Under the pieces are notes generated by a model that saw only the letters and a list, made by a program, of their open reading frames with translations, was not told the DNA's origin and did not search any database. From positions 5,962 to 69,961 of the forward strand of contig CAYSAK010000003.1 of NCBI GenBank assembly GCA_964429055.1: a stretch of DNA of 64,000 nt, written 5' to 3'. Made by a program: the position numbers and the translations under genes. Source of the DNA: an uncultured Candidatus Saccharibacteria bacterium (lineage in GTDB: Bacteria > Patescibacteriota > Saccharimonadia > Saccharimonadales > Saccharimonadaceae). Shown here piece by piece: positions 3,477 through 55,053 of this stretch (its first letter is position 1; each line of letters opens with the position of its first letter).

Positions 3477-4649
3477 TTATTTTATCAAATCTTCGCCAAA
3501 TTGCACAGCGTAGTCGTGATTTGCAGTGAGTAGATTGTTGTATTTTGCGACTAACGCGTCTTGCCCAAGTAATTCTGCCACATCGATGGCGATATTGTAG
3601 CGGGAGGCGGCATTTCTTCGAAGCATTTCAAATGGTGTAGTGGTAGAACCTTCTTCGTTGAAACCATGTACGCGCAGTCTTCGTCTTTCAGTATAATTTT
3701 CCAAAATGTTTTCTAAGGTTTCTGGATAGCCGTGGAAGTTAGCGATGATTGGTATATGCTCGTCAAACAATTCGGTAAACTTCTCAGCAGACAGTTTGTT
3801 ATCAGTTGTACCGATGGCACGATAGGACAAAGAATTAATACCAACAAAACGCATTTTGAGTTTTGGTAAATCACTTCGCAAAATTTTGATCGCTTCAATT
3901 GTTTCGTGCGTCACAATATCACCAGCTGCTGTTAGAATAATTTCTGGTTTTTCGTCGGAAATAAACTGATAAATTGAAGCTCCACCATTATCAAAAAGAT
4001 ATTTGGCGTGATGAGAGTCGATATAACGAGGGGACGGGGTTTTATTGAATGTTGTAAGATTTACAACATTCTGCGAATTAAGCATGAATTCAAAGGCCAC
4101 CTCAGCCGCTACGTCATCGACTGGAAAAATGCAGTTGGCTAAGTTTGAAGGCAGTGATAGGAGTGTAGAAATTAGAGCTGGTGATTGGTGTGTGAAACCA
4201 TTATGGTCTTGTCGCCAGCAAGTTGAGGTAGAAAGTAAATTCACAGCTGGCATTGGCTTACGCCAATTGACTGATTTCGATTGCTTAATAAATTTGATTT
4301 GCTGTAATAACTGAGACGTAATGACTGAGAAAAATGCTTCGTAGCTTCCCATCATGGCTGGTTCCCCGTTCATTAGGTGACCGGTCATAGTTGAAAACAA
4401 GACGTTTTCTGATAGCATTTCTATAATTTGACCATCCGGAGCTGATGGTAAGTCCCAAGTTTTAATTGGCAAGTCTCCCCATGCGCGTTTAGCGGTATCA
4501 AAAACCTCAGTGAATTTATTAGAGGTGGTTTCGTCTGGTGAGAAGAAATAAAAATGTTTGTCATTTTTTAATTGTTGCGCTAGAAGGCTTCCGATTTTTT
4601 CGGCTGGTGAATGGTATTCTAGACCGGGGTATTCAACTTTATCAATCAT
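3477..4649 (-). CDS. xfp: Phosphoketolase, C-terminal (PYR + C-terminal domain) subunit
   Basis: 390 aa. Aligns with the middle and C-terminal part of Xfp: FFSPDETTSNK, GSYEAFF, WRQDHNGFTHQSP, HGFNEEGSTTTPFEM. Its ATG overlaps the stop of the upstream half (ATGA at 4646-4649). Confidence 0.85.
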   Translation of the reverse strand: MIDKVEYPGLEYHSPAEKIGSLLAQQLKNDKHFYFFSPDETTSNKFTEVFDTAKRAWGDLPIKTWDLPSAPDGQIIEMLSENVLFSTMTGHLMNGEPAMMGSYEAFFSVITSQLLQQIKFIKQSKSVNWRKPMPAVNLLSTSTCWRQDHNGFTHQSPALISTLLSLPSNLANCIFPVDDVAAEVAFEFMLNSQNVVNLTTFNKTPSPRYIDSHHAKYLFDNGGASIYQFISDEKPEIILTAAGDIVTHETIEAIKILRSDLPKLKMRFVGINSLSYRAIGTTDNKLSAEKFTELFDEHIPIIANFHGYPETLENILENYTERRRLRVHGFNEEGSTTTPFEMLRRNAASRYNIAIDVAELLGQDALVAKYNNLLTANHDYAVQFGEDLIK

Positions 4650-5581
4650 AGAAGGAACCCTTTCTCTTTGTCAAATAGTTTATTAAATTCATAGGACTCT
4701 AACCATTTAGTAAGTTCTTGGAGCTCTTTGACACTGGTGGCTGGTTTCTTCAAAGGGATTTGATGAGCATCGTGGTGTAGATTTGGCCCTGTTTCGCCTT
4801 TGGCGGTTCTTAAAATATAAAATGGCGAGTCAACTTTTTTATTTAAAGCTTTTTGGAAATCTTCAGGATCGCTTCCGTAGATCCAAACTGGCGTAAAGCC
4901 AAATCCGCGAATCAGTTCGTTTAACTCTCTTTCGGATTTTCTAGCGTATAGTGATGGTGCAGAAATCTTATAACCGTTCAAATGAAGGATTGGTAATACG
5001 GTACCGTTTGCTGGACTAGCCATTAGGTTTCTTAGGTTTAAGGAATCTATGGCGGTGGCGGTTTCTAATTCCCCATCACCAATTAATACGGCTAAAGTTT
5101 TTTCTGGATGGCCAAGTGCTACGCCGTAGGCATTAGCTAGAGCATAGCCAAGTTCACCACCTTCAGTAATAACGCCTGGTGTGATTGGACTAGCGTGTGA
5201 CGGAAAGCCGTCTGGCCACGAAAAATGACGACAAATATACTTAATGCCCTCATAATTTGGTTTGGCTTTTTCGTCGATTTCAGCGAGTTTGCCGTCAATG
5301 AATAGATTTGCTTGTAAAGCCGGGAAGCCGTGCCCAGGTCCTAGGATGAAAGTGAATTCTTTTTGGTTATCAAAATAGTATTTTAGGTTCGCATAAGTGA
5401 CATTGATGCCATGGCAAGTGCCCCAATGTCCAAGTAAGCGTGGTTTAATATCGCTGTGTGATAGTCTTCGTTCAAGTAGGAAGTTATTCTGTAAGAAAAT
5501 TTGAGCGACTGATAAATAATCGCATGCCCGAATGCGTTTTCTGATTTTTTCTAAAGTGGCATAATCTACTTGCCCACTCAT
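4646..5581 (-). CDS. xfp: Phosphoketolase, N-terminal (TPP/PP domain) subunit
   Basis: Xfp N-terminal motifs GHWGTCHG, GPGHG, EGGELGYAL, GDGELET...LPILHLNGYKI. The ORF track starts at 5626 but overlaps the uvrB 3' end, so the internal ATG at 5581 (MSGQVDY) is preferred. Confidence 0.85.
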   Translation of the reverse strand: MSGQVDYATLEKIRKRIRACDYLSVAQIFLQNNFLLERRLSHSDIKPRLLGHWGTCHGINVTYANLKYYFDNQKEFTFILGPGHGFPALQANLFIDGKLAEIDEKAKPNYEGIKYICRHFSWPDGFPSHASPITPGVITEGGELGYALANAYGVALGHPEKTLAVLIGDGELETATAIDSLNLRNLMASPANGTVLPILHLNGYKISAPSLYARKSERELNELIRGFGFTPVWIYGSDPEDFQKALNKKVDSPFYILRTAKGETGPNLHHDAHQIPLKKPATSVKELQELTKWLESYEFNKLFDKEKGFLL

Positions 5582-5591
5582 TACATATTTA

Positions 5592-7559
5592 TTATAGCAT
5601 AAACTCTTTGATTTTGGCGATTTCATCGCGAAGTAAAGCAGCTTTTTCGAATTCGAGGTTGGCGGCAGCGAGTTGCATCTCGGACGACAACTGTTTTACT
5701 AGGTTTGGTAGTTCATCTTTTGGAATTTTTTTAATATTTAATTTGCTCTCAACTTCTTTTTCTGGAATAATTGCTCGAAGTCCGAGCGAAACCTCTTTTT
5801 TAATGGAGGTTGGCGTGATATTGTGCTCAGCATTGTATTGTTTTTGGATTTCGCGACGGCGATTAGTTTCGGAAATGGCTTTTTCCATACTTTCGGTGAT
5901 GAAGTTGGCGTACATGATGACTTTACCTTCTACGTGTCTAGCGGCACGACCAATTGTCTGAATGAGAGCTGATTCACTACGTAAGAACCCTTCTTTGTCC
6001 GCATCAAGGATGGCTACCAAGGATACTTCTGGAAGATCTAGGCCCTCACGAAGAAGGTTAATGCCTACTAGTACATCATAGACACCTTCGCGTAAATCTC
6101 TTAGAATATCGCTTCTTTCCAAGGTGTCTACGTCGGAATGAATGTAGGCCGTCTTAACACCGCGTTCTTTCAAATGGTCGGTTAAATCTTCTGCCATTCG
6201 TTTGGTAAGAGTCGTAATTAGCGTGCGTTGACCTTTGGCAATGCGTTTGTCAATTTCCTCCATTAAATCGTCGATTTGCCCGTCTGAACTTCGTACTTCG
6301 ACTTCTGGGTCGAGTAAACCAGTTGGGCGAATGACTTGCTCGGCTGGTTCTGGTGAGTGTTCTAATTCATATTCGCCTGGCGTGGCGGACACATAAATAG
6401 CTTGGTTCACGCGTTTTTGAAACTCGCCATAAGTTAATGGCCGGTTATCTAGTGCTGAAGGTAGTCTAAAGCCATAGTCGACTAGGGTTACTTTTCTGGC
6501 GTGGTCACCATTATACATGCCGCGAACTTGTGGTAAGGTCATGTGCGATTCATCCACGATCAAAAGGTAATCGTCTGGGAAGAAGTCGAGCAGGGTGGAA
6601 GGCGGTTCATCGGCTTTTCTTCCTTCTAGGTGTCTGGAATAGTTTTCAATTCCTTTTACAAAACCGGTGCTTTCGAGCATTTCGAGATCATATTTGGTGC
6701 GTTGGGATAATCTTTCGGCCTCTAGATATTTTTCATGTTCTTTAAAATAAGCCAATCGTTCATTAAATTCTGCGCGAATAGCATCAAGCGCTCTTTTTAG
6801 TTGATCTTTTGGCGTGGCATAATGCGTGTTTGGAAAAATGTGCACTTTTTCTGGTTTTTCGCGCGTTTCAAAAGTCAAAGGATCGACGATTTTGATTTCT
6901 TCTAGAGTATCAAATCCGAATTCAAAGCGGTAGGCAAATTCACCATTGGCTGGATACAGATCAATAGTGTCGCCCATTACGCGAAAATTGCCACGTTCAA
7001 ATGCAAGATCATTGCGGTGGTACTGAATGTTAACTAGTTTGCGAATAAAATCTAGTTGCGAAATGTTTTCGTAGCGTTTTATTTCGAAGGACATTTCTAA
7101 GTAGTTTTCTGGTGAGCCAATACCGTAGATGCAGGATACTGAGGCGACTACGATGACGTCATTTCGCGAAAGTAGGGCTTCCGTGGTGCCATGGCGCAGG
7201 CGGTCGATTTCGTCATTAATAGCAGAATCTTTTTCAATATAAGTGTCGGTTGAGGCGATGTATGCTTCTGGTTGGTAATAATCAAAATAAGATACAAAAT
7301 AATGGACTTCGTTTTCCGGGAAAAACTCTCTAAATTCGGAATATAGTTGAGCGGCTAAAGTTTTGTTGTGAGCGAGGACCAGGGTTGGTTTTTGTACATT
7401 CTTTATAATATTAGCCATAGTAAAAGTTTTACCAGAGCCAGTTACGCCAAGTAAGGTCTGTTCTTTTACACCTGCTAAAACGCCGTCCGTAAGCTGTTTG
7501 ATAGCTCTTGGTTGATCACCAGTCGGTTGGTATTTAGACACTAATTTGAATTTTGTCAT
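5592..7559 (-). CDS. uvrB: Excinuclease ABC subunit B
   Basis: 655 aa. Walker A GVTGSGKTFTMAN, DESH box (VDESHMTLPQ), helicase motifs, and a C-terminal UVR domain (LEFEKAALLRDEI). Confidence 0.97.
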   Translation of the reverse strand: MTKFKLVSKYQPTGDQPRAIKQLTDGVLAGVKEQTLLGVTGSGKTFTMANIIKNVQKPTLVLAHNKTLAAQLYSEFREFFPENEVHYFVSYFDYYQPEAYIASTDTYIEKDSAINDEIDRLRHGTTEALLSRNDVIVVASVSCIYGIGSPENYLEMSFEIKRYENISQLDFIRKLVNIQYHRNDLAFERGNFRVMGDTIDLYPANGEFAYRFEFGFDTLEEIKIVDPLTFETREKPEKVHIFPNTHYATPKDQLKRALDAIRAEFNERLAYFKEHEKYLEAERLSQRTKYDLEMLESTGFVKGIENYSRHLEGRKADEPPSTLLDFFPDDYLLIVDESHMTLPQVRGMYNGDHARKVTLVDYGFRLPSALDNRPLTYGEFQKRVNQAIYVSATPGEYELEHSPEPAEQVIRPTGLLDPEVEVRSSDGQIDDLMEEIDKRIAKGQRTLITTLTKRMAEDLTDHLKERGVKTAYIHSDVDTLERSDILRDLREGVYDVLVGINLLREGLDLPEVSLVAILDADKEGFLRSESALIQTIGRAARHVEGKVIMYANFITESMEKAISETNRRREIQKQYNAEHNITPTSIKKEVSLGLRAIIPEKEVESKLNIKKIPKDELPNLVKQLSSEMQLAAANLEFEKAALLRDEIAKIKEFML

Positions 7560-14007: not shown

Positions 14008-14036
14008 TTGACATTTTAGCATAAGTGTGATATAAT
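14008..14036 (+). promoter_or_regulatory. Sigma70-type promoter (TTGACA-N17-TATAAT) giving a leaderless mRNA for the DUF167 gene
   Basis: TTGACA at 14008-14013, 17-nt spacer, TATAAT at 14031-14036. The ATG at 14043 is 6 nt after the -10 box and there is no SD. Confidence 0.6.
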
Positions 14037-18262: not shown

Positions 18263-19576
18263 TTAGAAAAACCTCGTGATATCTAGGATTGTGACGATAA
18301 ACATGATGACTAAAAGTACCACAAATGCACGGGCGACAATACGCTCCTCAGCTTCTTTAGTCAGTTTTTTACGACGTAATTTAAAAATGGCAATAAGGAG
18401 CCAACGTCCACCATCAAGTGCTGGAATCGGCAGAATATTCATACAGGCTAGAGATACTGAAATGAGCGCGGCGAGGAAGGCTAAATTGGCTGGTCCGGCT
18501 GAAGTAAAGGCTGGGAATAAAACTCCAATGATTCCGACTGGACCCGATACCGAATCACCGACTTCCGAAATGGCTTCTTGCCCTTCTTGTCGTACGTTGG
18601 CGTCAAAACTAAATAATGAGCCGACACCACGGACTAAATTCCACAACATGGTGCCAAGACCTTTAAAGGTCTCGCCAGTTAATTGCGCGGTTAAGCCAAT
18701 ACCAACAATTGGTGCGGACCAAGTTGAATAGGATAGTTGCTCGTTACTTTTCAAAGTTACGCCGAGCAAATAATCAGCATCCTCAGGATTTAAGGTGACT
18801 GCAATGTCAGTAGAAACTGTGGTTTTGTCTTCTTCTAGACAAGGACAAGGCTCCATATAACAATCCGGTTGGTTAAGACAAACTGTGGCTATTCGCCGGA
18901 TGGTATAGACGACCGTTTCGCCAGCGTGCGCGCTGTTGTATTCGGTGATGTCGTTAGCAAAAGTCATTGGATTGCCATCTACGGCGAGAATTTTATCATC
19001 GACTTTGAGCCCGGCTTTGCTGGCAGGAGAGTTCTCGGCTACGGAAGTAATTTCGACCGGCGAAGAGGCGGTTTGAGTGTCGGATGCGACGGTAAATTGA
19101 TTGTCTAGGAAAAGTGGCATACCAACCCACGCCAAAATAGTGAAAATTACAAATGCCGTAATCCAGTTCATTAATACGCCACCAAATAAAATTTTGGTTT
19201 TCTTCCAAAAACTGGCAGCGCCAAAAGTTCCTTTTCTAGTATCGGCTGCTGATTCCCCGTCCATTTGGCAAAAGCCACCAATTGGTAGCCAGTTGATGCT
19301 GAAAATCATGCCTTTTTGAGCTAGGCTTTTGTCACTACTGTTTGAATAAACTACTTTAGAGAGCTTCTCTTTTTTCCATTTTGACTTTGGATAACGTTGC
19401 CACTTGCCGGTTTCTGGGTTTTTAATCCAAGCAATTGCACGAGGTGGAAAACCGATGCCAAATTCGAGCACATTGACACCATTTCTTCGCGCTATGATAA
19501 AATGCCCGAATTCGTGCAAAATTACTAGCAGCGTTAACACTAAAAGACCGACAATTATTCCTACAAATATATCCAT
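18263..19576 (-). CDS. rseP: RIP site-2 metalloprotease RseP (M50 family)
   Basis: 437 aa. HEFGHFIIAR zinc motif, a PDZ-like insert, and a NILPIPALDGG motif. Confidence 0.92.
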   Translation of the reverse strand: MDIFVGIIVGLLVLTLLVILHEFGHFIIARRNGVNVLEFGIGFPPRAIAWIKNPETGKWQRYPKSKWKKEKLSKVVYSNSSDKSLAQKGMIFSINWLPIGGFCQMDGESAADTRKGTFGAASFWKKTKILFGGVLMNWITAFVIFTILAWVGMPLFLDNQFTVASDTQTASSPVEITSVAENSPASKAGLKVDDKILAVDGNPMTFANDITEYNSAHAGETVVYTIRRIATVCLNQPDCYMEPCPCLEEDKTTVSTDIAVTLNPEDADYLLGVTLKSNEQLSYSTWSAPIVGIGLTAQLTGETFKGLGTMLWNLVRGVGSLFSFDANVRQEGQEAISEVGDSVSGPVGIIGVLFPAFTSAGPANLAFLAALISVSLACMNILPIPALDGGRWLLIAIFKLRRKKLTKEAEERIVARAFVVLLVIMFIVTILDITRFF

Positions 19577-20929: not shown

Positions 20930-23728
20930 ATGAAAATCAAAGTGCACTATCGGAGTAGGGTCAGCTCTGTGGGCTTAAAACTAAATAAAGTCGGTGTAAG
21001 TTCGCTTGCGCTTTTAATTATCGGGTTAGTTGCAGGAGGCCTGGGGATTAAATATTCTTCGGAATTATCTAAAGAAGAGTCTGTTTTTGCGTTGCATCAT
21101 GAATGTAACCAATATGCTACCACTATAAATGATGCTGTTTGTATGCAGGATATGAATGATTCAGTAGCTGGAACTATGGTGGCTGGACGCCAATACCAAC
21201 TATATGATAAAAGAGACGATAAATTATATTACATTGCCAAATTAGCTGATGGAAATGTGTGGATGACACAAAACCTTGATCTAGATTTGAATAAGAATGT
21301 TAAGTTGACCCCAGCGGATTCTGACGTTGTTGCCGATTGGACTCCGGCAGAATCGACAATCGTGTCTGAATGCATAGACGAAGATGAGAATGGAACGTGT
21401 GAAGACTTGGACTTGGCATTTGATGAAGTTGGCACTAAAAATACCACGCCAGAATCATATGACGTAGGTGATTTATATTGGAACGGGATTGTTGGAGATT
21501 GCGATACATGTACACAATATCAGACTTATATCACGAGTGATTCTAGTAATACTCATTATCATTTAGGTAATTTTTACAACTGGAGTGCTGCTACAGCGAA
21601 CAATGATTCAAGTGCGCTTGTGGCTGGTGGTGAAGTGGAACAATCGATTTGTCCTGCTGGGTGGTCTTTGCCAACCGCTCTTGAGTTACCAGAGACTAAC
21701 AGAAGAGCAAGAGATTATATGACTCTTCTTAGTTATTATGCTACTGAAGACGCTTTTGACGAGTTCCCTTTAGTTGGATTCTCGGTTGAGGAGGACTTTA
21801 ATTCGGCGCCATATAGTAGTCCGCTATATTTTGGGTATTTTCGTGAACCTGGATATTATGGTGGATATTGGTCAAGTTTATATGAACGATCTAATGATGA
21901 AAGAACTCCATATCTTGCAACTGATTTAGAAATATCAGTAGAAGAAGAAGGTTATATCGGCATATCTAGTTTCATTGAGAGAAAGATGATCTTAAACGTT
22001 AGATGTGTCGCAAAATCGCGTGAAGCTGTGCCGGAACCACACGCAGAGCCAGTCGAACAAGTAGTTTCGTTTGGTGCGTCGTCCGTTAGTAAGACTTATG
22101 GTGATGCCAAGTTCACTAACGTTGCTTCCACTACTGGCGATGGGGCGATTACCTATTCGTCTAGCAACGCCTCGGTTGCCACAATAAATAGCACTTCTGG
22201 CGAAGTCACTATTGTTGGTGTTGGTTCGGCTACTATTACTGCTAGTGCTGCTGCCACGGATAATTATTTAGCTAGTTCAGCAACATACACATTGACTGTT
22301 AGTAAAGCAAATAGAACCGTTTCGTTTGGTGCGTCGTCCGTTAGTAAGACTTATGGTGGTGCTAAGTTCACCAACGTTGCAACTAGGACTGGCGATGGCA
22401 CGATAGCCTATTCATCTAGTAACACTTCAGTTGCGTCAATTGATAGTGCCTCTGGTGAAGTAACTATCATTGGCGCTGGTTCAGCCATTATCACTGCAAG
22501 TGTAGCTGCTACTTCAAATTACAATGCCGGCTCAGCAACATACACATTGACTGTGAGTAAAGCAAATAGAACCATATCATTTGGGAGTAGCGCAATAACG
22601 AAGACCTATGGTGATGCTAAGTTTACCAATGTTGCAACTAAGACTGGAGACGGAACAATTACTTATTCATCTAGTAACGCCTCGGTTGCCGAAGTGGCTG
22701 CTAATGGTGAAGTGACTATCAAGGCCGCTGGTTCGGCTACTATTACTGCAAGCGTAGCTGCTACTTCAAACTATAATGCTGGCTCTGCTTTTTATACGCT
22801 TACTGTGAATAAAGCAAATAGAAGAGTTTCATTTGGAGGGAGCGAAGTGGTTAAAGTATACGGTGATGATAAGTTTACTAATGTTGCAACTAAGACTGGC
22901 GATGGTGTAATTGTCTATTCCTCTAGCGATGGGTCAGTCGCTATGGTAGATAGTTCTACTGGTGAGATAACTATTAATAGTGCTGGTTCGGCTACTATTA
23001 CTGCAAGCGTAGCTGCTACTTCAAACTACAATGCTGGTTCAGCAACATACGTATTGACTGTGAATAAGAAAGAATCTGTAAAACCTGAGGAAGTATCTGA
23101 AGTCAAAGAAGGTTACGTTACTGATAAACTATCCACTATTGAACTTGAGACCAAAGGTTTGGTTTGGGATGATGAAAACGAACAAATTGAAGAAGGTAAA
23201 AATAGCTACGTCGTAAACTACACGGAAAACGCGGATAGCGCTAACTATACTACCGAGTCATTCGAAATTGAAGTCGATGGAAAGCACAGAAAATATGAAG
23301 TAGTAGAAGGTGACAAACAAACTTACATTCTAGGTAGTGAAGAATATATGAGTTTCACGTTTGATGCAGATTACACTCTATTTGAAGAAGGTGGTGAAGT
23401 CTACATCAATGAAGATCTACTCGATGAAGAAGATTATGTTTCTGAATCCGGTAGCACCGTGATTAAAGTAGCCGATGAATACCTAAATACTTTAGATGAA
23501 GGTAAATATACTTTGGCAGTGTACTTTAATGATGGTGGTATTGCTACTACTTCCTTCACGCTCGAAGAACCGGAAGTGGCAGTACCAGATACCGGTGCTC
23601 ATACGAAGTCAAACGACAAAACTACTTCCGTTGGAGCCTATATCCTGCCATTCTCAGCGTTTGTCTTATTCTCCGTGTTTAGCGTCATCGCTAGAAAAAA
23701 GCAAAAAGTTTGTTTTGACAGAAAATAG
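20930..23728 (+). CDS. Surface protein: FISUMP-like domain, four Ig-like tandem repeats, and a VPDTG sorting signal
   Basis: 932 aa. N-terminal TM/signal. Fibrobacter-succinogenes-major-paralogous-like motifs (GNVWMTQNLDLD, NFYNWSAA, CPAGWSLPT). Four 84-85-aa repeats (SFG.S...KTYGDAKFTNVA..TGDG.I.YSSSN.SVA...GEVTI...GSATITASVAATSNYNAGSATYTLTV.KANR). C-terminal VPDTG, then a hydrophobic helix, then RKKQK. Confidence 0.8.
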   Translation: MKIKVHYRSRVSSVGLKLNKVGVSSLALLIIGLVAGGLGIKYSSELSKEESVFALHHECNQYATTINDAVCMQDMNDSVAGTMVAGRQYQLYDKRDDKLYYIAKLADGNVWMTQNLDLDLNKNVKLTPADSDVVADWTPAESTIVSECIDEDENGTCEDLDLAFDEVGTKNTTPESYDVGDLYWNGIVGDCDTCTQYQTYITSDSSNTHYHLGNFYNWSAATANNDSSALVAGGEVEQSICPAGWSLPTALELPETNRRARDYMTLLSYYATEDAFDEFPLVGFSVEEDFNSAPYSSPLYFGYFREPGYYGGYWSSLYERSNDERTPYLATDLEISVEEEGYIGISSFIERKMILNVRCVAKSREAVPEPHAEPVEQVVSFGASSVSKTYGDAKFTNVASTTGDGAITYSSSNASVATINSTSGEVTIVGVGSATITASAAATDNYLASSATYTLTVSKANRTVSFGASSVSKTYGGAKFTNVATRTGDGTIAYSSSNTSVASIDSASGEVTIIGAGSAIITASVAATSNYNAGSATYTLTVSKANRTISFGSSAITKTYGDAKFTNVATKTGDGTITYSSSNASVAEVAANGEVTIKAAGSATITASVAATSNYNAGSAFYTLTVNKANRRVSFGGSEVVKVYGDDKFTNVATKTGDGVIVYSSSDGSVAMVDSSTGEITINSAGSATITASVAATSNYNAGSATYVLTVNKKESVKPEEVSEVKEGYVTDKLSTIELETKGLVWDDENEQIEEGKNSYVVNYTENADSANYTTESFEIEVDGKHRKYEVVEGDKQTYILGSEEYMSFTFDADYTLFEEGGEVYINEDLLDEEDYVSESGSTVIKVADEYLNTLDEGKYTLAVYFNDGGIATTSFTLEEPEVAVPDTGAHTKSNDKTTSVGAYILPFSAFVLFSVFSVIARKKQKVCFDRK
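22064..23080 (+). repeat. Four in-frame tandem repeats of 255/255/252/255 nt
   Basis: Units start at 22064, 22319, 22574 and 22826. The first 40 nt of units 1 and 2 are identical (gtttcgtttggtgcgtcgtccgttagtaagacttatggtg). Confidence 0.9.
23582..23596 (+). other. Sortase-type sorting motif VPDTG
   Basis: gta cca gat acc ggt is in frame. It is followed by ~15 polar residues, a hydrophobic helix (VGAYILPFSAFVLFSVFSVIA) and an RKKQK tail. Confidence 0.65.
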
Positions 23729-23733
23729 CATAT

Positions 23734-23847
23734 AACAAAAAAATATCTTCACGGAGGCTGCGTCCGGCCGTACGAAAGCCACGGGCGGCCGGCGCTCGTC
23801 CTCCGATGGACGCGCTCCGGAGGCCTCCTTTGAAGATATTATTTGTT
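23734..23847. repeat. GC-rich palindromic element, intergenic copy (114 nt)
   Basis: Arms AACAAAAAAATATCTTCA / TGAAGATATTATTTGTT. Core GCGTCCGGCCG...GCCACGGGCGGCCGGCGCTCGTCCTC...CGCGCTCCGGAGG. Shares 19 identical nt with the trmD copy and 13 with the uvrC copy. Lies between the convergent 932-aa gene and tsf. Confidence 0.85.
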
Positions 23848-31224: not shown

Positions 31225-32571
31225 CTACTTTAGCATATTTTTTCTTTTCAGTAAAGAATGATACGTGATGGCAAACCGGTGTGACTCTTCGTCGATGCGG
31301 GCGATTAAGCGTGCAACGTGTGAACCGGAAGATAATTCCAAATGGTTCCATTCTCGGGGCGCGTCCAAAACCCCTGTCGCCACAGGGGTTTTGGCGCTCG
31401 TCCTCGCCTTGCCAGGCTCCGGATCCCCTCGAAATGGAACATTTGGAATTGCTAGTTTTACACGGGCGTTATGTGAATGGTCACCGGATTTGTCGCGACC
31501 GATTACTAGTATATTGTATGGCTCGACTAATGGCAAAATGGCGTTGACTTGATTGATGCCGCCGTCTAGAATAATTAGGTCCGGGAAATCCCATTCGGTG
31601 TGTTTAAGCCGTCTTGTGATCACCTCGATCATGCTTTTGAGGTCGTCATTGGTTGAAGTGCGGATTTTGAACTTGCGGTACTCGCTGCGGGCGGCGACAC
31701 CATTGATAAATACCACCATGCTTGCCACCGTATTGGTGCCAGATTGGTGCGAAATGTCGTATCCTTCGATTCGGCGCGGTGGTTTTTCTAGCCCGAGCAT
31801 TTTTTGTAAGTCAGATAAGGCCTGATCTGAAGAGATATCTAGAAACTCTTTGTCGGAAAAGACGATTTTCTTCTTGAGCTCTTTCAAACCAAACAATTGG
31901 TTACGGGCTTCGGCTGCTAGTTCATAATTCCCTTTGGAGGCCTCATCATACATGGTTTTTTCAAGCTCTTTTAAGAGTTTTTCGCGATCACCTTCTAAGT
32001 ATCTAATGAGTTTTCTTAAGTTTCTTTTGTAATCTTTAGGAGTGCATTTTCCGACTTCAATTCCTGGCGTGAGATTTAGGTCGGTATTTAAGGTCTTTTT
32101 GCCAGTGTATGGCTTATCATAATACGGAAAGATTCGCCGAAGGGTTCGGAGAGCCTTTTCGACCACCAATTTGCCATAAAATGGCCCAACATAGACTGCT
32201 TTATCATCCATTGGTGTGCGTGTGAAAGAAATATACGGCACTTCATCTTGCATCGAAATTCGGACATATGACACGGTTTTATCGTCGCGAAGCAGAATAT
32301 TCCACTTTGGCATGTAGCGTTTGATCATTTCGGATTCTAAAAACAATGCGTCCATTTCGGTATCGACGACAATCCAGTCGGTGTCATAGATTTCTGCTAC
32401 CAAGGCTTCAGTTTTGGTGTCTTTATGAGATTTTTGGAAGTATTGGCGTACCCGGTTTTTAAGAACCGCCGCTTTGCCTACATAGATAATCTCCCCGGTT
32501 TTGTTTTTATGAAAATAAACTCCCGGTGAGACCGGAAGTTTATTTAGTTTTTGTCTTAACCTCTCGTCCAT
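31225..32571 (-). CDS. uvrC: Excinuclease ABC subunit C, short form without C-terminal (HhH)2, carrying a 39-codon palindromic-element insert
   Basis: 448 aa. GIY-YIG (GVYFHKNKTGEIIYVGKA...NRV..Y), a UVR-like helix pair, the endonuclease domain (GYDISH...ILDGG), and it ends at EESHRFAITYH. Confidence 0.9.
   Translation of the reverse strand: MDERLRQKLNKLPVSPGVYFHKNKTGEIIYVGKAAVLKNRVRQYFQKSHKDTKTEALVAEIYDTDWIVVDTEMDALFLESEMIKRYMPKWNILLRDDKTVSYVRISMQDEVPYISFTRTPMDDKAVYVGPFYGKLVVEKALRTLRRIFPYYDKPYTGKKTLNTDLNLTPGIEVGKCTPKDYKRNLRKLIRYLEGDREKLLKELEKTMYDEASKGNYELAAEARNQLFGLKELKKKIVFSDKEFLDISSDQALSDLQKMLGLEKPPRRIEGYDISHQSGTNTVASMVVFINGVAARSEYRKFKIRTSTNDDLKSMIEVITRRLKHTEWDFPDLIILDGGINQVNAILPLVEPYNILVIGRDKSGDHSHNARVKLAIPNVPFRGDPEPGKARTSAKTPVATGVLDAPREWNHLELSSGSHVARLIARIDEESHRFAITYHSLLKRKNMLK
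31334..31450. repeat. GC-rich palindromic element, in-frame copy in uvrC (117 nt)
   Basis: Arms AATTCCAAATGGTTCCATTCTCGGGG / CCCCTCGAAATGGAACATTTGGAATT. Perfect inner hairpin CCAAAACCCCT-GTCGCCAC-AGGGGTTTTGG, followed by GCGCTCGTCCTC. Confidence 0.85.
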
Positions 32572-47126: not shown

Positions 47127-47723
47127 ATGGATAGTATTACATCAGGTTCTATCGTTGAACCACGGGTGGCGTTGGAGCCAAACAAATCATCAAGTAAAAA
47201 TAATAAGATTATTCTTATTATTACTATAATAATTGAGGCGATTATTATTATCTGTCTTAGTATTGCACTTATTCTTACTAATAACGCCTTAAAACAATAT
47301 GAGCCATCTAAAGAAGAAGCAGAATTAAATGAGAATAATTATATGGAGGAAGAGCCTCTATATCAGTTGACCAAAAAGGAAGCCTTAGCCTTAATGTATG
47401 TTTATTCGATGGTGAATGATGAATTAGTTAAAAATAAAACTATGCCCTCGGACTATTGTGCTGTTCTTCAAAACATATATAATTATACCCTTGGCGTTGA
47501 AGATGATATGGAGGATCCATGTGCGAGTGGTGCGATAACTCTTGTTCCAGCTGATAATATGGAAGAGGAGTTGGCGTCGGTTGGCCAGATCTATATTGGT
47601 GTAGGTTTAAATGGGGAAACTTATAATTATTATGTATTCTCAGATTTTAGTGTGATGAGCCATGTTGACATGACTGAGTCCATACCGACTAATTCTATAA
47701 CAATTAATGTATCGGGTTCCTAG
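47127..47723 (+). CDS. Single-pass membrane protein, module-2 accessory (paralog of 44659-45237)
   Basis: 198 aa with the same architecture and conserved blocks as the 192-aa protein. Confidence 0.6.
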   Translation: MDSITSGSIVEPRVALEPNKSSSKNNKIILIITIIIEAIIIICLSIALILTNNALKQYEPSKEEAELNENNYMEEEPLYQLTKKEALALMYVYSMVNDELVKNKTMPSDYCAVLQNIYNYTLGVEDDMEDPCASGAITLVPADNMEEELASVGQIYIGVGLNGETYNYYVFSDFSVMSHVDMTESIPTNSITINVSGS

Positions 47724-47724
47724 T

Positions 47725-49620
47725 ATGTTTTCCCTTTTCACCACCTTCGCCTCAGTCTGTAAATGTGTATCAACTAATTTGTTTGGTGATGTCTGTAGTA
47801 ACGGTGAAGGCCTTGAAATCTACTATGTTCTCAATATAGTCATCAATGTTCTAACAGCTGGTATTGGTATTCTAGCGGTCATTGGTATAGCCTACTTTGG
47901 TGTCCAATATCTCACCGCTAAAGATGATCCAGCTCAAGTAAAGAAAGCAAAATCTAGACTTATGGCTATCATCATTGGTCTAGCAGCTTATGCTACTATT
48001 TATGCAGGTTTAACCTTTTTGCTACCAAACTTTACAATTGAGTCTGGTTCTATTAATAACTGTACGCCAGCTGATCCAGATGATCCACATCCGGTCTCGC
48101 CTGAGCCTGAGCCGGAGCCTGAGCCTGAACCTGAGCCTGAACCTGAGCCTGAACCTGAGCCTGAACCTGAGCCGGAGCCTGAGCCAGGTGAGCGTAGTCC
48201 TTATTGTGGACCTGAAGCCCCAGGAAAATTCGGCAGTTTATCAAGCGTGACTAATAAACAATATCGGGACGGTTCGACTGTAAGTGATCATACTACTAAA
48301 AAGTATACTACCACATTTGGTCGTGTTTATTATGTTTTTAAACAAGCCAATCCTGTTTGGAAGAATGCAAGAGCTGGCAGTCAAGGTGATACTTTGGGAA
48401 ATAATGGATGTCTACGGACATCAACGGCGACAGTTTTACGTTCTTTTGGTGCAGATGTGACTCCTGCAGATTTTGCGTGGGCTGGTGGGTATAGTTTTAC
48501 AAAGGCCGACAAATATATAAAGGATAATAATTTACCAGTCAAGCGTTATGAACTAAAGAAGCCTTATGCAGATAATATTTGGAATGTGTTAAAAAAACAT
48601 GGTGCGGTAATAATATGGACAGAAGCTACATCGGTGTTTACTGAAAGAAAACATAAGTTACCAATCGTAGATTATAAAACTGGAAGTAATAATTCGAGGC
48701 TAGTATATATTGCGGATACGACTGGGAAGAGTAGTAATAATGGTTGGAAGGATTTGGATAATTATGTAATAGCGAAAGGAAATGTGAAGGCGGCGGTGGC
48801 TTTTGAGCCGACTACAACACTTAATTGTGGTGCTACTGGAGGCGGCGACTCGGGTGATTCAGGTGATAGTGGTACGGAAACCCCAGATATCAATTCTATC
48901 GGTAAGGGTGACACTTGTGGTCCAGAAGGCCCAGCCAGATCGGCGGGCGTATCGCTTGTCAGTCCTTATTCCTCTATGGACAAAAGCGTGTATGGTAAAT
49001 TAACTAAAAAATACACCACTACTAAAAATCGGGTTTATTATGTTTACCGACAGGATGATGATCCTTGGAAAGATGCGTCCGCTGGTAGTAGCAGTAAAAT
49101 GAAGGATGAAGGTGAGTCACGTACTCTGATTGCTGATATTATGCGTTCATTCGGTGCTGAAGTTACCCCGCTACACTTTAGTGGTTCTGGTATTTCTGGT
49201 AAGGCCGCTGCAATTAGCCGAGCCGAGTCATTAATCAGTAAACTTAGTTTGCCGCTCGTTGGTGGTGTAACTAAATATACTTCTGATTATGAAAACAAAA
49301 TTAAGACAACTTTGAATAATGGTGGTGCCGTGTTGATAAAGGTTAAAGATGGTATCTTTAACCATAAATCCGGCGCTACACATATTGCGTTGATAGATAT
49401 AAAAGAGGTGAGCGGTAAAACTAAGGTATTCTTAGTGGATTCGTTTGGACGTACTAAAGCTAGTAAGGATTCTTCGGTTCCTGTAAATAGCTGGGTCGAT
49501 CTTGATATTGTTGTTAATACTAGCAAGACTGGCATTCAAGAAATCCATGTTTTTACACCTAAAGCATCGGCAATTACCTGTCCAAAGGCTAACAATGTGC
49601 CAATCGAATATGAACAATAA
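47725..49620 (+). CDS. VirB2/TrbC-like two-helix N-module + (Pro-Glu)n linker + two tandem papain-like (C39-like) domains, the second lacking the catalytic Cys
   Basis: The track ORF starts at 47707. ATG 47725 (MFSLFTTFA) aligns with the paralog's N-terminus and sits 1 nt after the upstream stop. Domain 1: YYVFKQANPVWKN....LGNNGCLRTSTATVLRSFGADVTP ... KHKLPIVDY...LVYIADT. Domain 2: YYVYRQDDDPWKD....KDEGESRTLIADIMRSFGAEVTP ... THIALIDI...VFLVDS. Confidence 0.6.
   Translation: MFSLFTTFASVCKCVSTNLFGDVCSNGEGLEIYYVLNIVINVLTAGIGILAVIGIAYFGVQYLTAKDDPAQVKKAKSRLMAIIIGLAAYATIYAGLTFLLPNFTIESGSINNCTPADPDDPHPVSPEPEPEPEPEPEPEPEPEPEPEPEPEPEPGERSPYCGPEAPGKFGSLSSVTNKQYRDGSTVSDHTTKKYTTTFGRVYYVFKQANPVWKNARAGSQGDTLGNNGCLRTSTATVLRSFGADVTPADFAWAGGYSFTKADKYIKDNNLPVKRYELKKPYADNIWNVLKKHGAVIIWTEATSVFTERKHKLPIVDYKTGSNNSRLVYIADTTGKSSNNGWKDLDNYVIAKGNVKAAVAFEPTTTLNCGATGGGDSGDSGDSGTETPDINSIGKGDTCGPEGPARSAGVSLVSPYSSMDKSVYGKLTKKYTTTKNRVYYVYRQDDDPWKDASAGSSSKMKDEGESRTLIADIMRSFGAEVTPLHFSGSGISGKAAAISRAESLISKLSLPLVGGVTKYTSDYENKIKTTLNNGGAVLIKVKDGIFNHKSGATHIALIDIKEVSGKTKVFLVDSFGRTKASKDSSVPVNSWVDLDIVVNTSKTGIQEIHVFTPKASAITCPKANNVPIEYEQ
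47731..48050 (+). repeat. Conserved N-module DNA, copy 2 (paralogous to 45478-45800)
   Basis: See copy 1. Confidence 0.85.
48100..48186 (+). repeat. In-frame hexanucleotide (Pro-Glu) microsatellite-like repeat
   Basis: cct gag cct gag ccg gag cct gag cct gaa ... gag cca. It encodes an uninterrupted (PE)n run. Confidence 0.9.
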
Positions 49621-52090: not shown

Positions 52091-54151
52091 TTAATTCAAA
52101 GTGGTTAATTGTTGATATTTGGCGATGCCGGCCATTAATTCCTTATATTCTACCATATTTTCTGGATTTTGCAAGAAATCTTCGACGTCCATCTGGGCGC
52201 GGGCGATGAGTTTGGTATCTGAGAGAGTGGCGATACGAAGATCCAGGGCGCCGTGTTGTAAGGAGCCATAGATTTCCCCTGGACCACGGAGTTTTAAGTC
52301 TACTTCGGCGAGGTAGAAGCCGTCGCTAGACTTTTCGAGCTCACGAAGACGGCGAGACGGCGGAATGTCGCCAGAGGTGATTAAGAAGCAGTAGGCCTTC
52401 GAAGCGCCACGTCCTACTCTACCGCGCAGTTGGTGAAGCTGGGCCAGGCCGTATGATTCGGCATTTTCGATGACCATTAAAGTGGCATTTGGCACATCGA
52501 CACCGACCTCTACTACGGTGGTAGAAACTAAAATGTCAATTTCGCCGTTAGCAAACTTCTCCATTACGGCATCTTTTTCAGCTGGTTTCATTTTGCCATG
52601 TAAAAACTCGATGGTCTTATCTGGAAATGCTTCGCGAAGCTTGTTAGTGCGAGTTCTGACTGAGGTTGCCTCCGAGATTGGGCCTTTTAGACCATCTTCG
52701 ATGGCCTTACAAATCCAATAAATCTGCTGGCCGTGCATTTTGGTGCCTTTACCTTTGATGTCTGGTTTTTCGGCGAGAATTTCTCGCATCTTTGGATAGA
52801 GTTTTTCGCGCATCTCAACCTCTTCTAGAATTTTGGTTTCAACTGGCTGGCGCCCGGCTGGAAGTTCATCTAGAATTGAGACATCGAGATCGCCAAAAAC
52901 AGTGAGCTGCAGAGAGCGCGGAATTGGCGTGGCGGTCATTGAAAGAAGATGTGGCGCTAAACCGTGCGGTGATTTCAGAACTAGTTTTTGCCTCTGTTCT
53001 ACACCAAAACGATGCTGCTCATCGATGATGGTGAGGGTGAGATTATGAAACTCGGTGTCATCGGTAAGTAAAGCGTGCGTGCCAATAGTGAGATTGATTT
53101 CACCTGATGCAATCTGTTTTTTTAGTGCGGGTTTTTGCTTGGTTGCCCCGATTAACAGAGCGGTTTTAACGCCAAAAGGCTCTAATAATCTTGACAAACT
53201 CTCAAAATGTTGTGTAGCTAAAATAGCGGTAGGGGCGAGTAAAGCCACTTGGCCACCTGACAAAATCGTTTCGTAAGTTGCGAGTGCTGCGACCATGGTT
53301 TTGCCTGAGCCGACATCTCCCTGTAATAAGCGGTTCATTGGCACCTTTTTTTCCATGTTTTGGAAAATTTCCCAGGTGGCTCTTCTCTGCGCGTTGGTTA
53401 GTTTAAATGGCAAGCTTGCAACAAATGCACGGATTTTCTCGGCATCAAATGGCACTGAAATGGATTTTAGTTTCTCATTTTCACGGCGGTTGAGCTTGGC
53501 GGCCAAGATTAGCTCAAATAACTCTTCATAAGCGAGATATTGCCTGGACACTTCAATATCTTTTGAAGAATTAGGAAAATGCGCTCTAAAGAGCATCTCG
53601 CGCCTGGTACCTGGTTTGACGGTCGGTAGTAAATCCGGTATTTCGGCAAATCTTTCCCTTGCGCCATTAAAAAACCGCTTAAAATCGTGAGATTTGAGAC
53701 CGCCATGCGCAACATAAATTGGTGTTAGGCCCGAGGTCGGATCAATATCAGAAACGAGTGCAGCCGAAGGTGAAATAATGCTCCAGCGACCGTTCTTTAG
53801 TTCATAATTCCCTGTAAAATAATACTCTTTTTCTGGCGAAAATTGACGGGCTCGGTAACTTTGGTTGAACCAAACTACTTTGACGCCACCGGTTTCGTCA
53901 CGTATGATTCCTTCGGTGACGGTGAGATTGCGACGCCGAGCTCGCCGAGTGGTTATAGAGTCAATTTTTCCTTTAATTACGACTTTACCAGGGCGGATTT
54001 CGTTAATTGAGGTTGGTGCAGCATAGGTTTCGTAGTCTCTTGGCAGAGTGTAGAAAAAATCCCGCATTGTTTTAATGCCAGCTTTTTTTAACACTTCCGC
54101 CGTCTTCGGCCCCACCCCTTTGATATTTTCGACCGAATCAAATAAATTCAT
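52091..54151 (-). CDS. recG: ATP-dependent DNA helicase RecG
   Basis: Wedge/OB domain, Walker A GDVGSGKT, DEQHRFG, QLRGRVGRG. The start at ATG 54151 (MNLFDSV) gives an ATGA overlap with the trmD stop. The track start at 54178 would overlap trmD by 31 nt. Confidence 0.95.
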   Translation of the reverse strand: MNLFDSVENIKGVGPKTAEVLKKAGIKTMRDFFYTLPRDYETYAAPTSINEIRPGKVVIKGKIDSITTRRARRRNLTVTEGIIRDETGGVKVVWFNQSYRARQFSPEKEYYFTGNYELKNGRWSIISPSAALVSDIDPTSGLTPIYVAHGGLKSHDFKRFFNGARERFAEIPDLLPTVKPGTRREMLFRAHFPNSSKDIEVSRQYLAYEELFELILAAKLNRRENEKLKSISVPFDAEKIRAFVASLPFKLTNAQRRATWEIFQNMEKKVPMNRLLQGDVGSGKTMVAALATYETILSGGQVALLAPTAILATQHFESLSRLLEPFGVKTALLIGATKQKPALKKQIASGEINLTIGTHALLTDDTEFHNLTLTIIDEQHRFGVEQRQKLVLKSPHGLAPHLLSMTATPIPRSLQLTVFGDLDVSILDELPAGRQPVETKILEEVEMREKLYPKMREILAEKPDIKGKGTKMHGQQIYWICKAIEDGLKGPISEATSVRTRTNKLREAFPDKTIEFLHGKMKPAEKDAVMEKFANGEIDILVSTTVVEVGVDVPNATLMVIENAESYGLAQLHQLRGRVGRGASKAYCFLITSGDIPPSRRLRELEKSSDGFYLAEVDLKLRGPGEIYGSLQHGALDLRIATLSDTKLIARAQMDVEDFLQNPENMVEYKELMAGIAKYQQLTTLN

Positions 54152-54888
54152 GCTTTCCCCGAATGTTCTTCGCGCCATTTAGCGATTTCGCCGTGGTTGC
54201 CAGAAAGCAAGACTTCTGGTACTTTCATACCGCGGAAATCTTCTGGTCTGGTGTATTGTGGATATTCCAAATTATCGCCATCGGAAAATGATTCAATTTC
54301 GGCTGAAGTCTCGCCACCGAGTACTCCGGGGATGAGCCTTACCACTGAGTCAATAATAATTAGTGCTGGAAGTTCCCCGCCGGTTAAGATGTATTTTCCT
54401 AGCGAAACCTTGTAATCTACCAGAGACAAAATTCTCTCGTCATAGCCTTCGTAATGTGGACATAGAATGATGTAATGGGAGTTCGCACTCAGTTCGGGGC
54501 CGCGTCCGGCCGGCCTGTCGCCACGGGCGGCCGGCGCTAAATCTCGCGCTGCCGCGCTCCGAAATGCCCCGAACCCGAGTGCAAACTCCCTTGCCAGGCT
54601 CTGGTTCCAGATTTCGCCTACAGGAGTTGGGATAATGACTTTGGCGGATGGATCTTTGGCTTTGACAGATTCAATGGCGTTGAAAACTGGTTCGCAGCGA
54701 AGAAGCATGCCATCGCCACCACCGTATGGTGTATCGTCTACTGAGCGGTGTGGACCTAGGCCAAATTCGCGTAAATTCACAAAATCAAACTCCGCGAGAC
54801 CTTTTCTCAAGGCTTTTTCCATCATTGACGACTGGAGATATGGTTCAATCGCCTCCCTAAACAGTGTGATGATTGTGAATTTAATCAT
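54148..54888 (-). CDS. trmD: tRNA (guanine37-N1)-methyltransferase TrmD carrying a 38-codon palindromic-element insert
   Basis: MIKFTIITLFREAIEPYL..., DDTPYGGG.GM, CPHYEGYDERI, GGELPALIIIDSVVRLIPGVLG. The upstream 25 codons of the track ORF (to 54963) cover a terminator hairpin and the -10 box and are rejected. Confidence 0.93.
   Translation of the reverse strand: MIKFTIITLFREAIEPYLQSSMMEKALRKGLAEFDFVNLREFGLGPHRSVDDTPYGGGDGMLLRCEPVFNAIESVKAKDPSAKVIIPTPVGEIWNQSLAREFALGFGAFRSAAARDLAPAARGDRPAGRGPELSANSHYIILCPHYEGYDERILSLVDYKVSLGKYILTGGELPALIIIDSVVRLIPGVLGGETSAEIESFSDGDNLEYPQYTRPEDFRGMKVPEVLLSGNHGEIAKWREEHSGKA
54477..54590. repeat. GC-rich palindromic element, in-frame copy in trmD (114 nt)
   Basis: Arms GGGAGTTCGCACTCAGTTCGGGGC / GCCCCGAACCCGAGTGCAAACTCCC. 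Core GCGTCCGGCCGGCCTGTCGCCACGGGCGGCCGGCGCT...CGCGCTCCGAAAT. Confidence 0.88.
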
Positions 54889-54895
54889 AAGATAT

Positions 54896-54904
54896 ATTAT
54901 ACCA
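54896..54904 (-). promoter_or_regulatory. Extended -10 promoter (TGgTATAAT) 7 nt upstream of the trmD ATG (leaderless)
   Basis: The minus strand reads TTTTGTGGTATAAT-atatctt-ATGATTAAA. No SD. Confidence 0.5.
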
Positions 54905-54905
54905 C

Positions 54906-54931
54906 AAAAGAACCGGTCTTGCGACCGGTTC
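54906..54931 (-). terminator. Rho-independent terminator ending the candidate sRNA upstream of trmD
   Basis: On the minus strand GAACCGGTC-gcaa-GACCGGTTC is followed by TTTT. Confidence 0.65.
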
Positions 54932-55053
54932 CGCGCTGATGCGCGCCCACCCTTGGGGCACATTGGTTTGTTTTAATCCGCTGTTTTTGTTTTAATGTAA
55001 GTCTCCACACTCCACTAATTAATCAGTGGAACCCCTGTGAAGCGTACCAGCTT
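54906..55053 (-). ncRNA. Candidate ~150-nt structured small RNA or leader (unknown family)
   Basis: Bounded by a TTGACA-N17-TATGCT promoter (55060-55088) and a strong terminator. Contains hairpins CCACT-gattaatt-AGTGG, GCCC-caagggt-GGGC and CGCGC-atca-GCGCG. It has no SRP, tmRNA, 6S or RNase P signature motifs that I can recognise. Confidence 0.25.

Follow-up and report, generated by a model that had tools for sequence, protein, structure and literature searches.

A GC-rich palindrome inside uvrC of a Saccharibacteria bacterium is one copy of a structure-defined repeat family, probably a small mobile DNA element

The gene uvrC of an uncultured Candidatus Saccharibacteria bacterium carries a GC-rich palindrome of 117 nt. 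The gene lies on the minus strand of the 64-kb stretch of contig CAYSAK010000003.1 analysed here, called the window; its sequence is abbreviated W, all coordinates are positions in it, and L and P numbers designate related loci and proteins. The window has a GC content of 42% and its islands above 68% GC consist only of four copies of the element described below and of one Ala/Pro low-complexity gene. The parts of the locus are the following:

31225..32571, minus strand: host gene uvrC, 448 amino acids, with GIY-YIG, UVR and RNase H-like endonuclease domains (Pfam, homologues)
31334..31450, plus strand (element sense; antisense to uvrC): whole palindrome, three-way-junction fold, z about -9 on both strands
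31334..31349, plus strand: outer left arm of stem P1, locus-specific; the mRNA strand encodes ..WNHLEL
31350..31435, plus strand: conserved core; covariance model R1, 91.1 bits, E = 4e-19
31361..31397, plus strand: long hairpin P2, GCG(T)CC-AAAACCCCT / loop GTCGCCAC / AGGGGTTTT-GGCGC; at least 9 compensated stem variants across copies
31400..31424, plus strand: short hairpin P3, GTCC-TC-GCCT / loop TGCC / AGGC-TCC-GGAT; covariation across copies
31436..31450, plus strand: outer right arm of P1, locus-specific; the mRNA strand encodes host-like ..IPNVP

A preliminary description of this DNA had proposed the palindrome with these ends and arms, and it is present, far beyond chance: the window has a single occurrence of the arm sequence, and 0 are expected. 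The arms are imperfect, being interrupted by one bulged G and by a small internal loop. Folded as single-stranded DNA, the copy has an energy of -39.3 kcal/mol for the plus strand and -41.5 kcal/mol for the minus strand, to be compared with a mean of about -17 kcal/mol for dinucleotide shuffles (z = -9.0 and -9.5, respectively), none of 200 shuffles being as stable. The fold is a three-way junction made of the outer stem P1, the long hairpin P2 with its loop GTCGCCAC and the short hairpin P3 with its loop TGCC, and it bears out the perfect pairing that had been proposed for the inner hairpin CCAAAACCCCT-GTCGCCAC-AGGGGTTTTGG.

The UvrC homologues of Candidatus Saccharibacteria comprise a class of 448 amino acids with the insert and a class of 416-421 amino acids without it, and most of the lengths in between (423, 429, 430, 433 and 438) can be read as in-frame partial deletions of the insert. 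Empty and distant orthologues retain VIP-(4-6 residues)-(L/V/I)EL, e.g., IVIPEGEEDYRMVELA, and the distant ones read IVIP-EGEEDY-RMVEL at the insert site. Because uninterrupted orthologues retain this VIP-xxxx-(L/V/I)EL segment, alignment puts the net insertion at about 30 codons, approximately 31351-31440, matching the core recognized by the covariance model, and the outer 13 nt or so of each arm sit on ancestral codons of a β-hairpin, outside the mobile unit. Comparison with orthologues lacking the insert thus upholds a real insertion and corrects the 39 codons initially proposed to about 30; the idea that excising all 117 nt restores a normal end of UvrC has to be abandoned, as the empty orthologues of 416-421 amino acids keep the outer-arm positions. 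Modelling of the protein, also called for in the preliminary description, gave an AlphaFold model that is poor overall (mean pLDDT, the predicted local distance difference test, of 55) and was used solely for a local statement: residues 378-408 form a low-confidence segment (pLDDT <50) between strands 371-374 and 410-413. The Thermotoga maritima UvrC structures 2NRR and 2NRT align on either side of the insert with a gap at it. The predicted site is a surface loop of a β-hairpin in the RNase H-like endonuclease domain.

The core is not peculiar to uvrC. Scanning representative genomes with the pattern GCGTCC-N8-10-GTCGCCAC-N8-10-GGCGC matched at least 120 loci. Among the matches listed, about 35 loci were in low-GC genomes, nearly all assigned to Saccharibacteria or Ca. 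Nanosyncoccus and a few only to 'bacterium', and nearly all the stems of the Saccharibacteria matches pair perfectly if one bulge is allowed; the remaining ones were chance matches in GC-rich genomes, where the two N-stretches are not complementary. The low-GC carriers come from ruminant and other gut samples and include Ca. Nanosyncoccus alces, and as far as seen the family is confined to animal-associated low-GC Saccharibacteria (Ca. Nanosyncoccus/TM7-G3 relatives). The architecture of the core is, in its 5' half, [locus-specific arm]-TTC(TC)GGGG-CGCGTCC-stem-GTCGCCAC-stem'-GGCGCT-NNNN-CTC and, in its 3' half, (GCGC TGCC GCGC or GCCT TGCC AGGC)-TCC-GRA-NN-CCCC(TC)GAA-[complementary locus-specific arm]. 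The short hairpin P3 thus alternates between GCCT/AGGC and GCGC/GCGC, with a closing pair that is either C-G or T-A. Covariance model R1 was built from 35 copies, in which the loop GTCGCCAC is constant, these seed copies having themselves been picked by a pattern that fixes this loop. It found 54 matches in 1.0 Mb of related DNA and 4 more in another 0.23 Mb, and none in the more distant uvrC loci L160-L204 (about 63-74% protein identity). The palindromes of the family span 91-149 nt. Three loci of one metagenome-assembled genome (two in L110, one in L116) have identical cores and different arms, and some stem variants are specific to genomes (L020/L104 and L032/L079).

Searches of databases left the element unmatched. 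A scan of the window with Rfam 15 at gathering thresholds found two tRNAs only, the best E-value of the element itself against Rfam was 1, far under gathering scores, and blastn against GenBank phages returned no match to it. A viral origin was considered and rejected, the pattern matches in IMG/VR being chance occurrences in GC-rich contigs without complementary stems. No description of these elements was found in the literature on palindromic, MITE (miniature inverted-repeat transposable element), hairpin or GC-rich insertions in Saccharibacteria, Patescibacteria or Nanosyncoccus; as far as this search shows, the family is previously undescribed, of a known general kind and with several unusual properties. 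Other families of GC-rich palindromes, with no evident similarity to the GTCGCCAC family, were seen at L070:3993-4080 and 4249-4334, L013:419-517 and L150:1274-1368.

The window holds three further copies, for a density of about 1 per 16 kb:

23738..23844, plus strand: intergenic copy between convergent genes (surface protein, tsf); 25.6 bits; P2 loop degenerate
54475..54592, plus strand: trmD copy, gene on the minus strand, phase 1; 97.8 bits
56868..56984, plus strand: obg copy of a divergent subfamily, with loop GTCGTCAC and a different P3; 13.6 bits

All four cores have the same sense on the plus strand, although the host genes do not: uvrC and trmD are encoded on the minus strand, and obg on the plus strand, so that its copy is in the sense orientation. 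A visual comparison of the listed sequences indicates that the divergent subfamily of the obg copy has compensated changes in its own P3. The arms of the intergenic copy are bordered by an A-run and a T-run, its loop is longer than 8 nt and lies outside what a simple terminator scanner detects, and it has an orthologue in L126 at 18649-18771. As the preliminary description had it, the stem AAAACCCCT/AGGGGTTTT of uvrC is replaced by GGCCGGCC(T)/GGGCGGCC in the trmD and intergenic copies, a fully compensated swap. The proposed sharing of the loop and of the sequence after it, with 13 nt identical to the intergenic copy, was right in part: GGCGCTCGTCCTC is common to the uvrC and intergenic copies, and the loop GTCGCCAC is kept in trmD, whereas the intergenic copy has ..TACGAAAGCCAC in its place. 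The reading phase of the core is 0 in uvrC and 1 in trmD, and the resulting peptides are unrelated, again as initially noted.

With many copies at hand, covariation could be counted on 53 distinct ones, in an alignment fitted to the model, which favours the structure. Cells in standard pairs amounted to 98.1%, as compared with 84.3% when partners were shuffled and 20-51% when they were slid; cells with double changes numbered 143 for 38 expected, and 12 of the 20 pairs had at least one double change (8.2 in the control). RNAalifold agrees with these counts. The margin is large despite the fitted alignment, and the raw stem variants need no alignment at all: GGCC/GGCC, GTCC/GGAC, GGTC/GACC, GCTC/GAGC, GCAC/GTGC, AGCC/GGCT, AAAA/TTTT, GAAA/TTTC and ACGA/TCGT. 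The stem substitutions are compensatory, as the preliminary description had proposed from fewer copies. An excess of G.T over A.C in the core helices (14 to 2), considered as a sign of folding of the core-sense strand, was discarded since 8 of the 14 came from a mis-drawn pair beside a shifting bulge.

What the encoded peptide looks like depends on how the core happens to lie. In a set unbiased towards uvrC (the window and the loci of the pattern scan, 39 copies), 32 copies (82%) are within long open reading frames (ORFs), 17 of them antisense to the gene and 15 in the same sense as it, and the genes hosting in-frame copies include uvrC, trmD and obg. Five of the six classes of orientation and phase are in use, with peptides such as ..PVATG.., ..RSAAARxLAPAARGDGPAGR.. 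and ..RPSGPSPRADGANSRAAALRN.. from different classes, and each frame is free of stops in 47-94% of cores. Among four uvrC orthologues with the insert in the same frame (W, L001, L128 and L130), substitutions per site at codon positions 1, 2 and 3 are 0.14, 0.12 and 0.15 in the element and 0.15, 0.08 and 0.53 in the rest of the gene; nucleotide identity is 85-90% in the element versus 73-78% in the gene, and the amino-acid identity of the element is below that of its flanks. When five uvrC orthologues are compared, all core differences fall in compensated pairs or in the 4-nt linker, and 18 of the 22 unpaired positions are invariant. The proposal that conservation acts on the structure of the nucleic acid and not on the peptide therefore holds, because of the covariation, of the five frame and orientation classes, of the absence of codon periodicity and of an element more conserved than its gene; the purifying selection on amino acids that could have overturned it is not seen in these relatives. 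'Compensated' need not mean selected for structure, because hairpin-templated copying of one arm from the other gives the same pattern.

At trmD the arms have demonstrably arisen in this manner. The P1 arms differ from locus to locus and pair within each copy, with on average 16.5 stem pairs within a copy versus 8.4 between arms of different copies, the latter figure representing the common base of P1, which is limited to the 8-9 bp at the foot of the core. Orthologous copies show compensated changes in their arms, for instance AAATG-TTCCA/TGGAA-CATTT versus AAAAG-TCCCA/TGGGA-CTTTT in uvrC. The clearest case of a host-derived arm is trmD. Empty alleles read AREFA-KDA-HY (215-218 amino acids) and filled alleles AREFA-[~31 residues]-ANS-HY (about 246 amino acids), and the right arm of filled alleles is the reverse complement of the allele's own R-E-F/L-A codons in W, in L205, whose element is of a different subfamily and in opposite orientation, and partly in L207, which has another element still (AGGGAGTTTGCA pairs with TGCGAACTCCC, and AGAGAATTAGCA with TGCTAATTCT). 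The arm swaps the host residues KDA or QSE for ANS and adds no net length. Because this right arm copies the allele's own codons, and because no such complementarity is found in the empty allele L206, one host flank must have been copied inverted over the other. The trmD ORF as listed (54148-54963, 271 amino acids) probably starts at an internal Met, giving 246 amino acids, to judge from the lengths of homologues. In L005, at another site in obg, it is the opposite arm that resembles the host. The S7-gap spacer has in relatives a plain terminator-like hairpin, AAAAAATCTCTTC-CAC-GAAGAGATTTTTT, and in L141 the form AAAATACTACCCT-[core]-AGGGTAGTATTTT, with the core at the position of the hairpin loop; other, AT-richer palindromic insertions occupy the same S7-gap terminator position in L158, L003 and L152. 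We infer that arms arise either by insertion into a hairpin loop or by later outward extension and 'correction' via intrastrand template switching. Template switching at quasi-palindromes is a known mechanism, and it would also yield the compensated arm changes between orthologous uvrC copies without any selection.

The same sites are refilled and rearranged. In L126 the uvrC flanks are 95-98% identical to those of W, yet a core of a different subfamily with different inner arms stands at the same position. The element of L134 matches that of L126 at 84% identity when one of them is reverse-complemented and at 67% when they are compared directly; the whole uvrC palindrome was inverted in situ, with a complete change of the encoded peptide. 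Many unrelated families of GC-rich elements are found, in different lineages of Saccharibacteria, at the trmD loop after AREFA and in the Obg linker between the GTPase and C-terminal domains, the empty forms having 216 amino acids for TrmD and 425 for Obg. Some copies are nested or tandem composites (L159:11118-11266, L067:7377-7521, L131:2152-2250 and protein P0003), one having an extra small hairpin in the P2 loop and one uvrC having two elements in tandem. Direct repeats flanking the copies are no longer than in controls with shuffled partners, so no target-site duplication is apparent, and 40 listed flanks have no common target motif, the junctions being blurred by the host-derived arms.

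Orientation was compared with local GC skew, computed with the elements masked. The orientation of the core agrees with the sign of the skew at 35 of 47 loci (p = 0.001), or 28 of 35 independent loci (p = 0.0005), and with the bias of the coding strand at 25 of 47 (p = 0.77). At the 16 loci where skew and coding bias are in conflict, orientation matches the skew 13 to 3. Where a contig has neighbouring copies, these share their orientation in 10 of 11 cases, the exception being L205. That the core tracks the replication strand rather than the gene is further suggested because the inverted uvrC copies (L134 and L135) lie in loci of opposite skew to L126 and L144. The plus strand of the window itself has a mostly positive GC skew, though about 70% of its coding DNA, including the ribosomal protein genes, is on the minus strand.

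The explanation we favour, with a probability of roughly 0.7, is that the uvrC palindrome belongs to a family of mobile DNA elements that are small, non-autonomous and defined by their structure. The mobile unit would be the GC-rich core of about 85-90 nt, which lacks an ORF of its own, conserved terminal inverted repeats and a target-site duplication, and which as a single strand would adopt the three-way junction of the basal stem, the long hairpin P2 (GTCGCCAC) and the short hairpin P3 (TGCC). Its length of about 30 codons and the usual lack of stops would therefore let it survive in essential genes, at any surface loop or linker that can take 30 extra residues, the insert presumably being translated into a functionless, probably disordered peptide whose sequence would be set by orientation and phase alone. 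The long outer stem would be made locally, by copying one host flank inverted over the other, and later changes in one arm would be copied to its partner by hairpin-templated template switching or gene conversion during replication, which would keep the stem paired and produce the 'compensated' changes. The element would act at the DNA level, probably in transient single-stranded DNA at the replication fork, and not as RNA.

Several observations weigh against this explanation. GC skew over 4-21 kb is a mere proxy for the direction of replication, the genomes are unfinished and many loci are only 4-8 kb long; the AlphaFold model of UvrC is weak overall, with its mean pLDDT of 55. No presence/absence polymorphism was found between near-identical strains and no insertion event could be dated: the close relatives of W (L125, P0121 and P0241) all have the same copies, and the uvrC site of L126 is filled, not empty. 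A Pfam scan of 23 window ORFs showed no transposase-like family, nor did the gene tables and Pfam lists of the fetched loci, no genome-wide search for Y1/HUH enzymes having been made. Single mismatches in the arms, read on the core-sense strand of about 50 copies, are A.C in 27 cases and G.T in 7, whichever the orientation of the gene, and this excess runs counter to a fold of the core-sense strand, which would predict the reverse. Finally, the loop nucleotides are invariant in orthologous uvrC copies while the synonymous sites of the gene are about 53% diverged; a selfish copy that is dead on arrival should decay, and the invariant loops therefore require either that selection operates at the locus or that active copies often replace or convert the resident one. 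Such replacement finds some support in the W/L126 pair and in the hot spots.

Selection at the locus is at the heart of the best surviving rival, which we hold to be unlikely: a DNA signal selected by the host, in which the strand-polar three-way junction would be kept by purifying selection and its presence in genes would be incidental. A replication, priming, nucleoid or topoisomerase protein might bind it, or it might serve as an uptake or recombination signal. Loops that stay invariant in situ across a divergence half-saturating synonymous sites imply a putative protein partner and suit such a signal well, as do an orientation linked to GC skew and not to genes, the co-orientation of adjacent copies and the spacing of about one copy per 16 kb in the window. 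The signal should, however, be maintained, whereas uvrC-site copies decay by partial deletion, each site is empty in many lineages and the family was not seen in the distant Saccharibacteria loci L160-L204. The several unrelated families that share the same hot spots look more like parasitism than like one signal.

A functional RNA is less probable again. Selection would then act on the fold of the transcript, as a cis-regulatory mRNA structure, a processing or stability element, a small-RNA precursor or a terminator, which would agree with the strong covariation in three helices, the very stable folds and the intergenic copies at expected terminator positions with A- and T-runs alongside. We rejected selection at the RNA level because sense and antisense insertions are equally common (15 and 17 relative to the host mRNA, with the same invariant loops). 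Moreover, the arm mismatches of sense copies are A.C, non-pairing in the mRNA, in 14 cases to 1, orientation matches GC skew and not transcription, Rfam gave no match even at E < 10, and a terminator within trmD, obg or uvrC would be lethal or costly.

We give very little weight to an intervening sequence missing from the mature product, i.e., an intron-like RNA, a translational bypass element or an intein. Bypass ('hop') elements are known from gene 60 of phage T4 and from the byps of yeast mitochondria, and a GC-rich hairpin in the coding DNA of an AT-rich genome recalls the latter. Yet the host frame stays open, without a stop, through all 44 intragenic copies. Derivatives that have decayed have changed by whole numbers of codons, ribozyme and intron families gave no match, and the low-complexity peptide has no intein motifs. 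Bypassing, moreover, depends on direct repeats of the take-off and landing codons, whereas the arms are inverted repeats. Least credible of all, and already contradicted, is a selected linker or interaction loop of about 30-39 residues in UvrC, for although many relatives share a similar peptide, RGDPEPGKARxSAxTPVATGVxDAPR, it lacks codon periodicity, is less conserved than its DNA and is predicted to be disordered, inverted and frame-shifted versions at the same site give unrelated peptides, and the core is found as DNA both between genes and within genes unrelated to uvrC.

A mobile, structure-defined element has several partial parallels. Rickettsia palindromic elements (RPEs) have been described as palindromic elements of about 150 bp, each family encoding a conserved peptide (PMC10969869). 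RPEs and the present elements are both short palindromic repeats present in many copies in a reduced-genome, host-dependent bacterium, and both lie in frame in unrelated, often essential genes, where they seem to be tolerated. Ogata and colleagues, in 2000, reportedly placed RPE inserts on protein surfaces. Unlike RPEs, the present elements give unrelated peptides through five orientation and phase classes and in-situ inversion, have a conserved internal three-way junction, a locus-specific host-derived outer stem and an orientation linked to GC skew, and belong to a different phylum, the comparison resting on the published description of RPEs.

REP/BIME/REPIN sequences (RAYT, TnpA-REP) and the hairpin MITEs of IS200/IS605 (PATEs) are likewise defined by hairpins and free of target-site duplications, and the internal hairpins P2 and P3 on one strand, with no conserved terminal inverted repeat or target-site duplication, recall elements derived from IS200/IS605. 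Work on IS608 and ISDra2 is said to have revealed activity on single-stranded DNA and an orientation biased relative to replication, a pattern that the skew-linked orientation of the present cores may recall, GC skew being a proxy. However, REPs and REPINs are extragenic with conserved stems, whereas 82% of the present copies are intragenic, with conserved loops and junction and a variable outer stem; and unlike IS200/IS605, the 40 listed flanks have no conserved target tetra- or pentanucleotide. Among classical MITEs, some are now and then found within genes, function as terminators or are inserted in one another (PMC10969869). The classical families (Correia, ERIC, BOX/RUP/SPRITE, Nezha) are small, non-autonomous, structured repeats too, but their conserved terminal inverted repeats and target-site duplications are both absent here.

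Two further comparisons concern fungal mitochondria and integrons. Fungal mitochondria contain GC hairpins (the GC clusters of yeast, the double-hairpin elements of Allomyces and the byps of Magnusiomyces) in AT-rich compact genomes, in coding regions and at recurrent sites. They resemble the present family as GC-rich palindromic or double-hairpin insertions, but are organellar, about 30-60 nt long and generally without a conserved three-way junction, the byps are untranslated, and there is no sign of relatedness. The attC sites of integrons are recombination substrates set by the structure of folded single-stranded DNA and are strand-selective. There, too, structure rather than sequence defines the element, but the outer R''/L''-L'/R' boxes of attC are conserved and its centre variable, the reverse of the arrangement found here, and attC sites lie at cassette boundaries near intI whereas the present copies are inside housekeeping genes.

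Some other features of the window were recorded in passing. A phosphoketolase is encoded on the minus strand by two overlapping ORFs, with XFP_N at 4646-5626 and XFP plus XFP_C at 3477-4649, and the split (3477-5626) may reflect a frameshift, a pseudogene or a gene that is truly in two parts. A promoter-like motif composed of TTGAC, a T/A-rich spacer and TGTGnTATAAT (extended -10) stands 5' of many genes, at 14008, 25222, 32577, 40631, 44154, 50439, 51524 and 55821. The gene of a 932-amino-acid surface protein has 255-nt tandem domain repeats at 22064-23080, and an ORF of 637 amino acids (47707-49620) has a 12-nt (Pro-Glu)n repeat at 48088-48201. A cluster of hypothetical ORFs at 43.6-50.8 kb has one weak match resembling a type IV secretion system pilin, under Pfam's own cutoff.

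Selfish DNA inside protein-coding genes has so far been emblematic of Rickettsia, and the mobile-element explanation would extend it to the Candidate Phyla Radiation, with a peptide that is demonstrably irrelevant because the frame and the orientation in which this insertion is translated vary. Saccharibacteria epibionts are medically and agriculturally relevant, and inserts that inflate or scramble loops of UvrC, TrmD and Obg matter for annotation, alignments, structure prediction and strain typing of these organisms. The host-derived arms, the reused loops, the in-situ inversion and the skew-linked orientation point to a DNA-hairpin mechanism that is testable, Saccharibacteria being now cultivable and transformable, and that could inform how palindromes arise and persist in bacterial chromosomes. 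We tentatively go one step further, to a possibility that we rate at well under even odds: an undescribed, transposase-free movement by the folded single-stranded three-way junction, which would enter hairpin loops or stalled-fork intermediates in a replication-strand-specific manner, without terminal repeats or target duplication, and would build its own long stem by writing the inverse of one host flank over the other, at least some copies then being selected as a strand-polar signal. If this were true, protein loops of essential genes would be 'landing pads' continually rewritten by the dynamics of DNA-level palindromes in a bacterium of the Candidate Phyla Radiation with a minimal genome.

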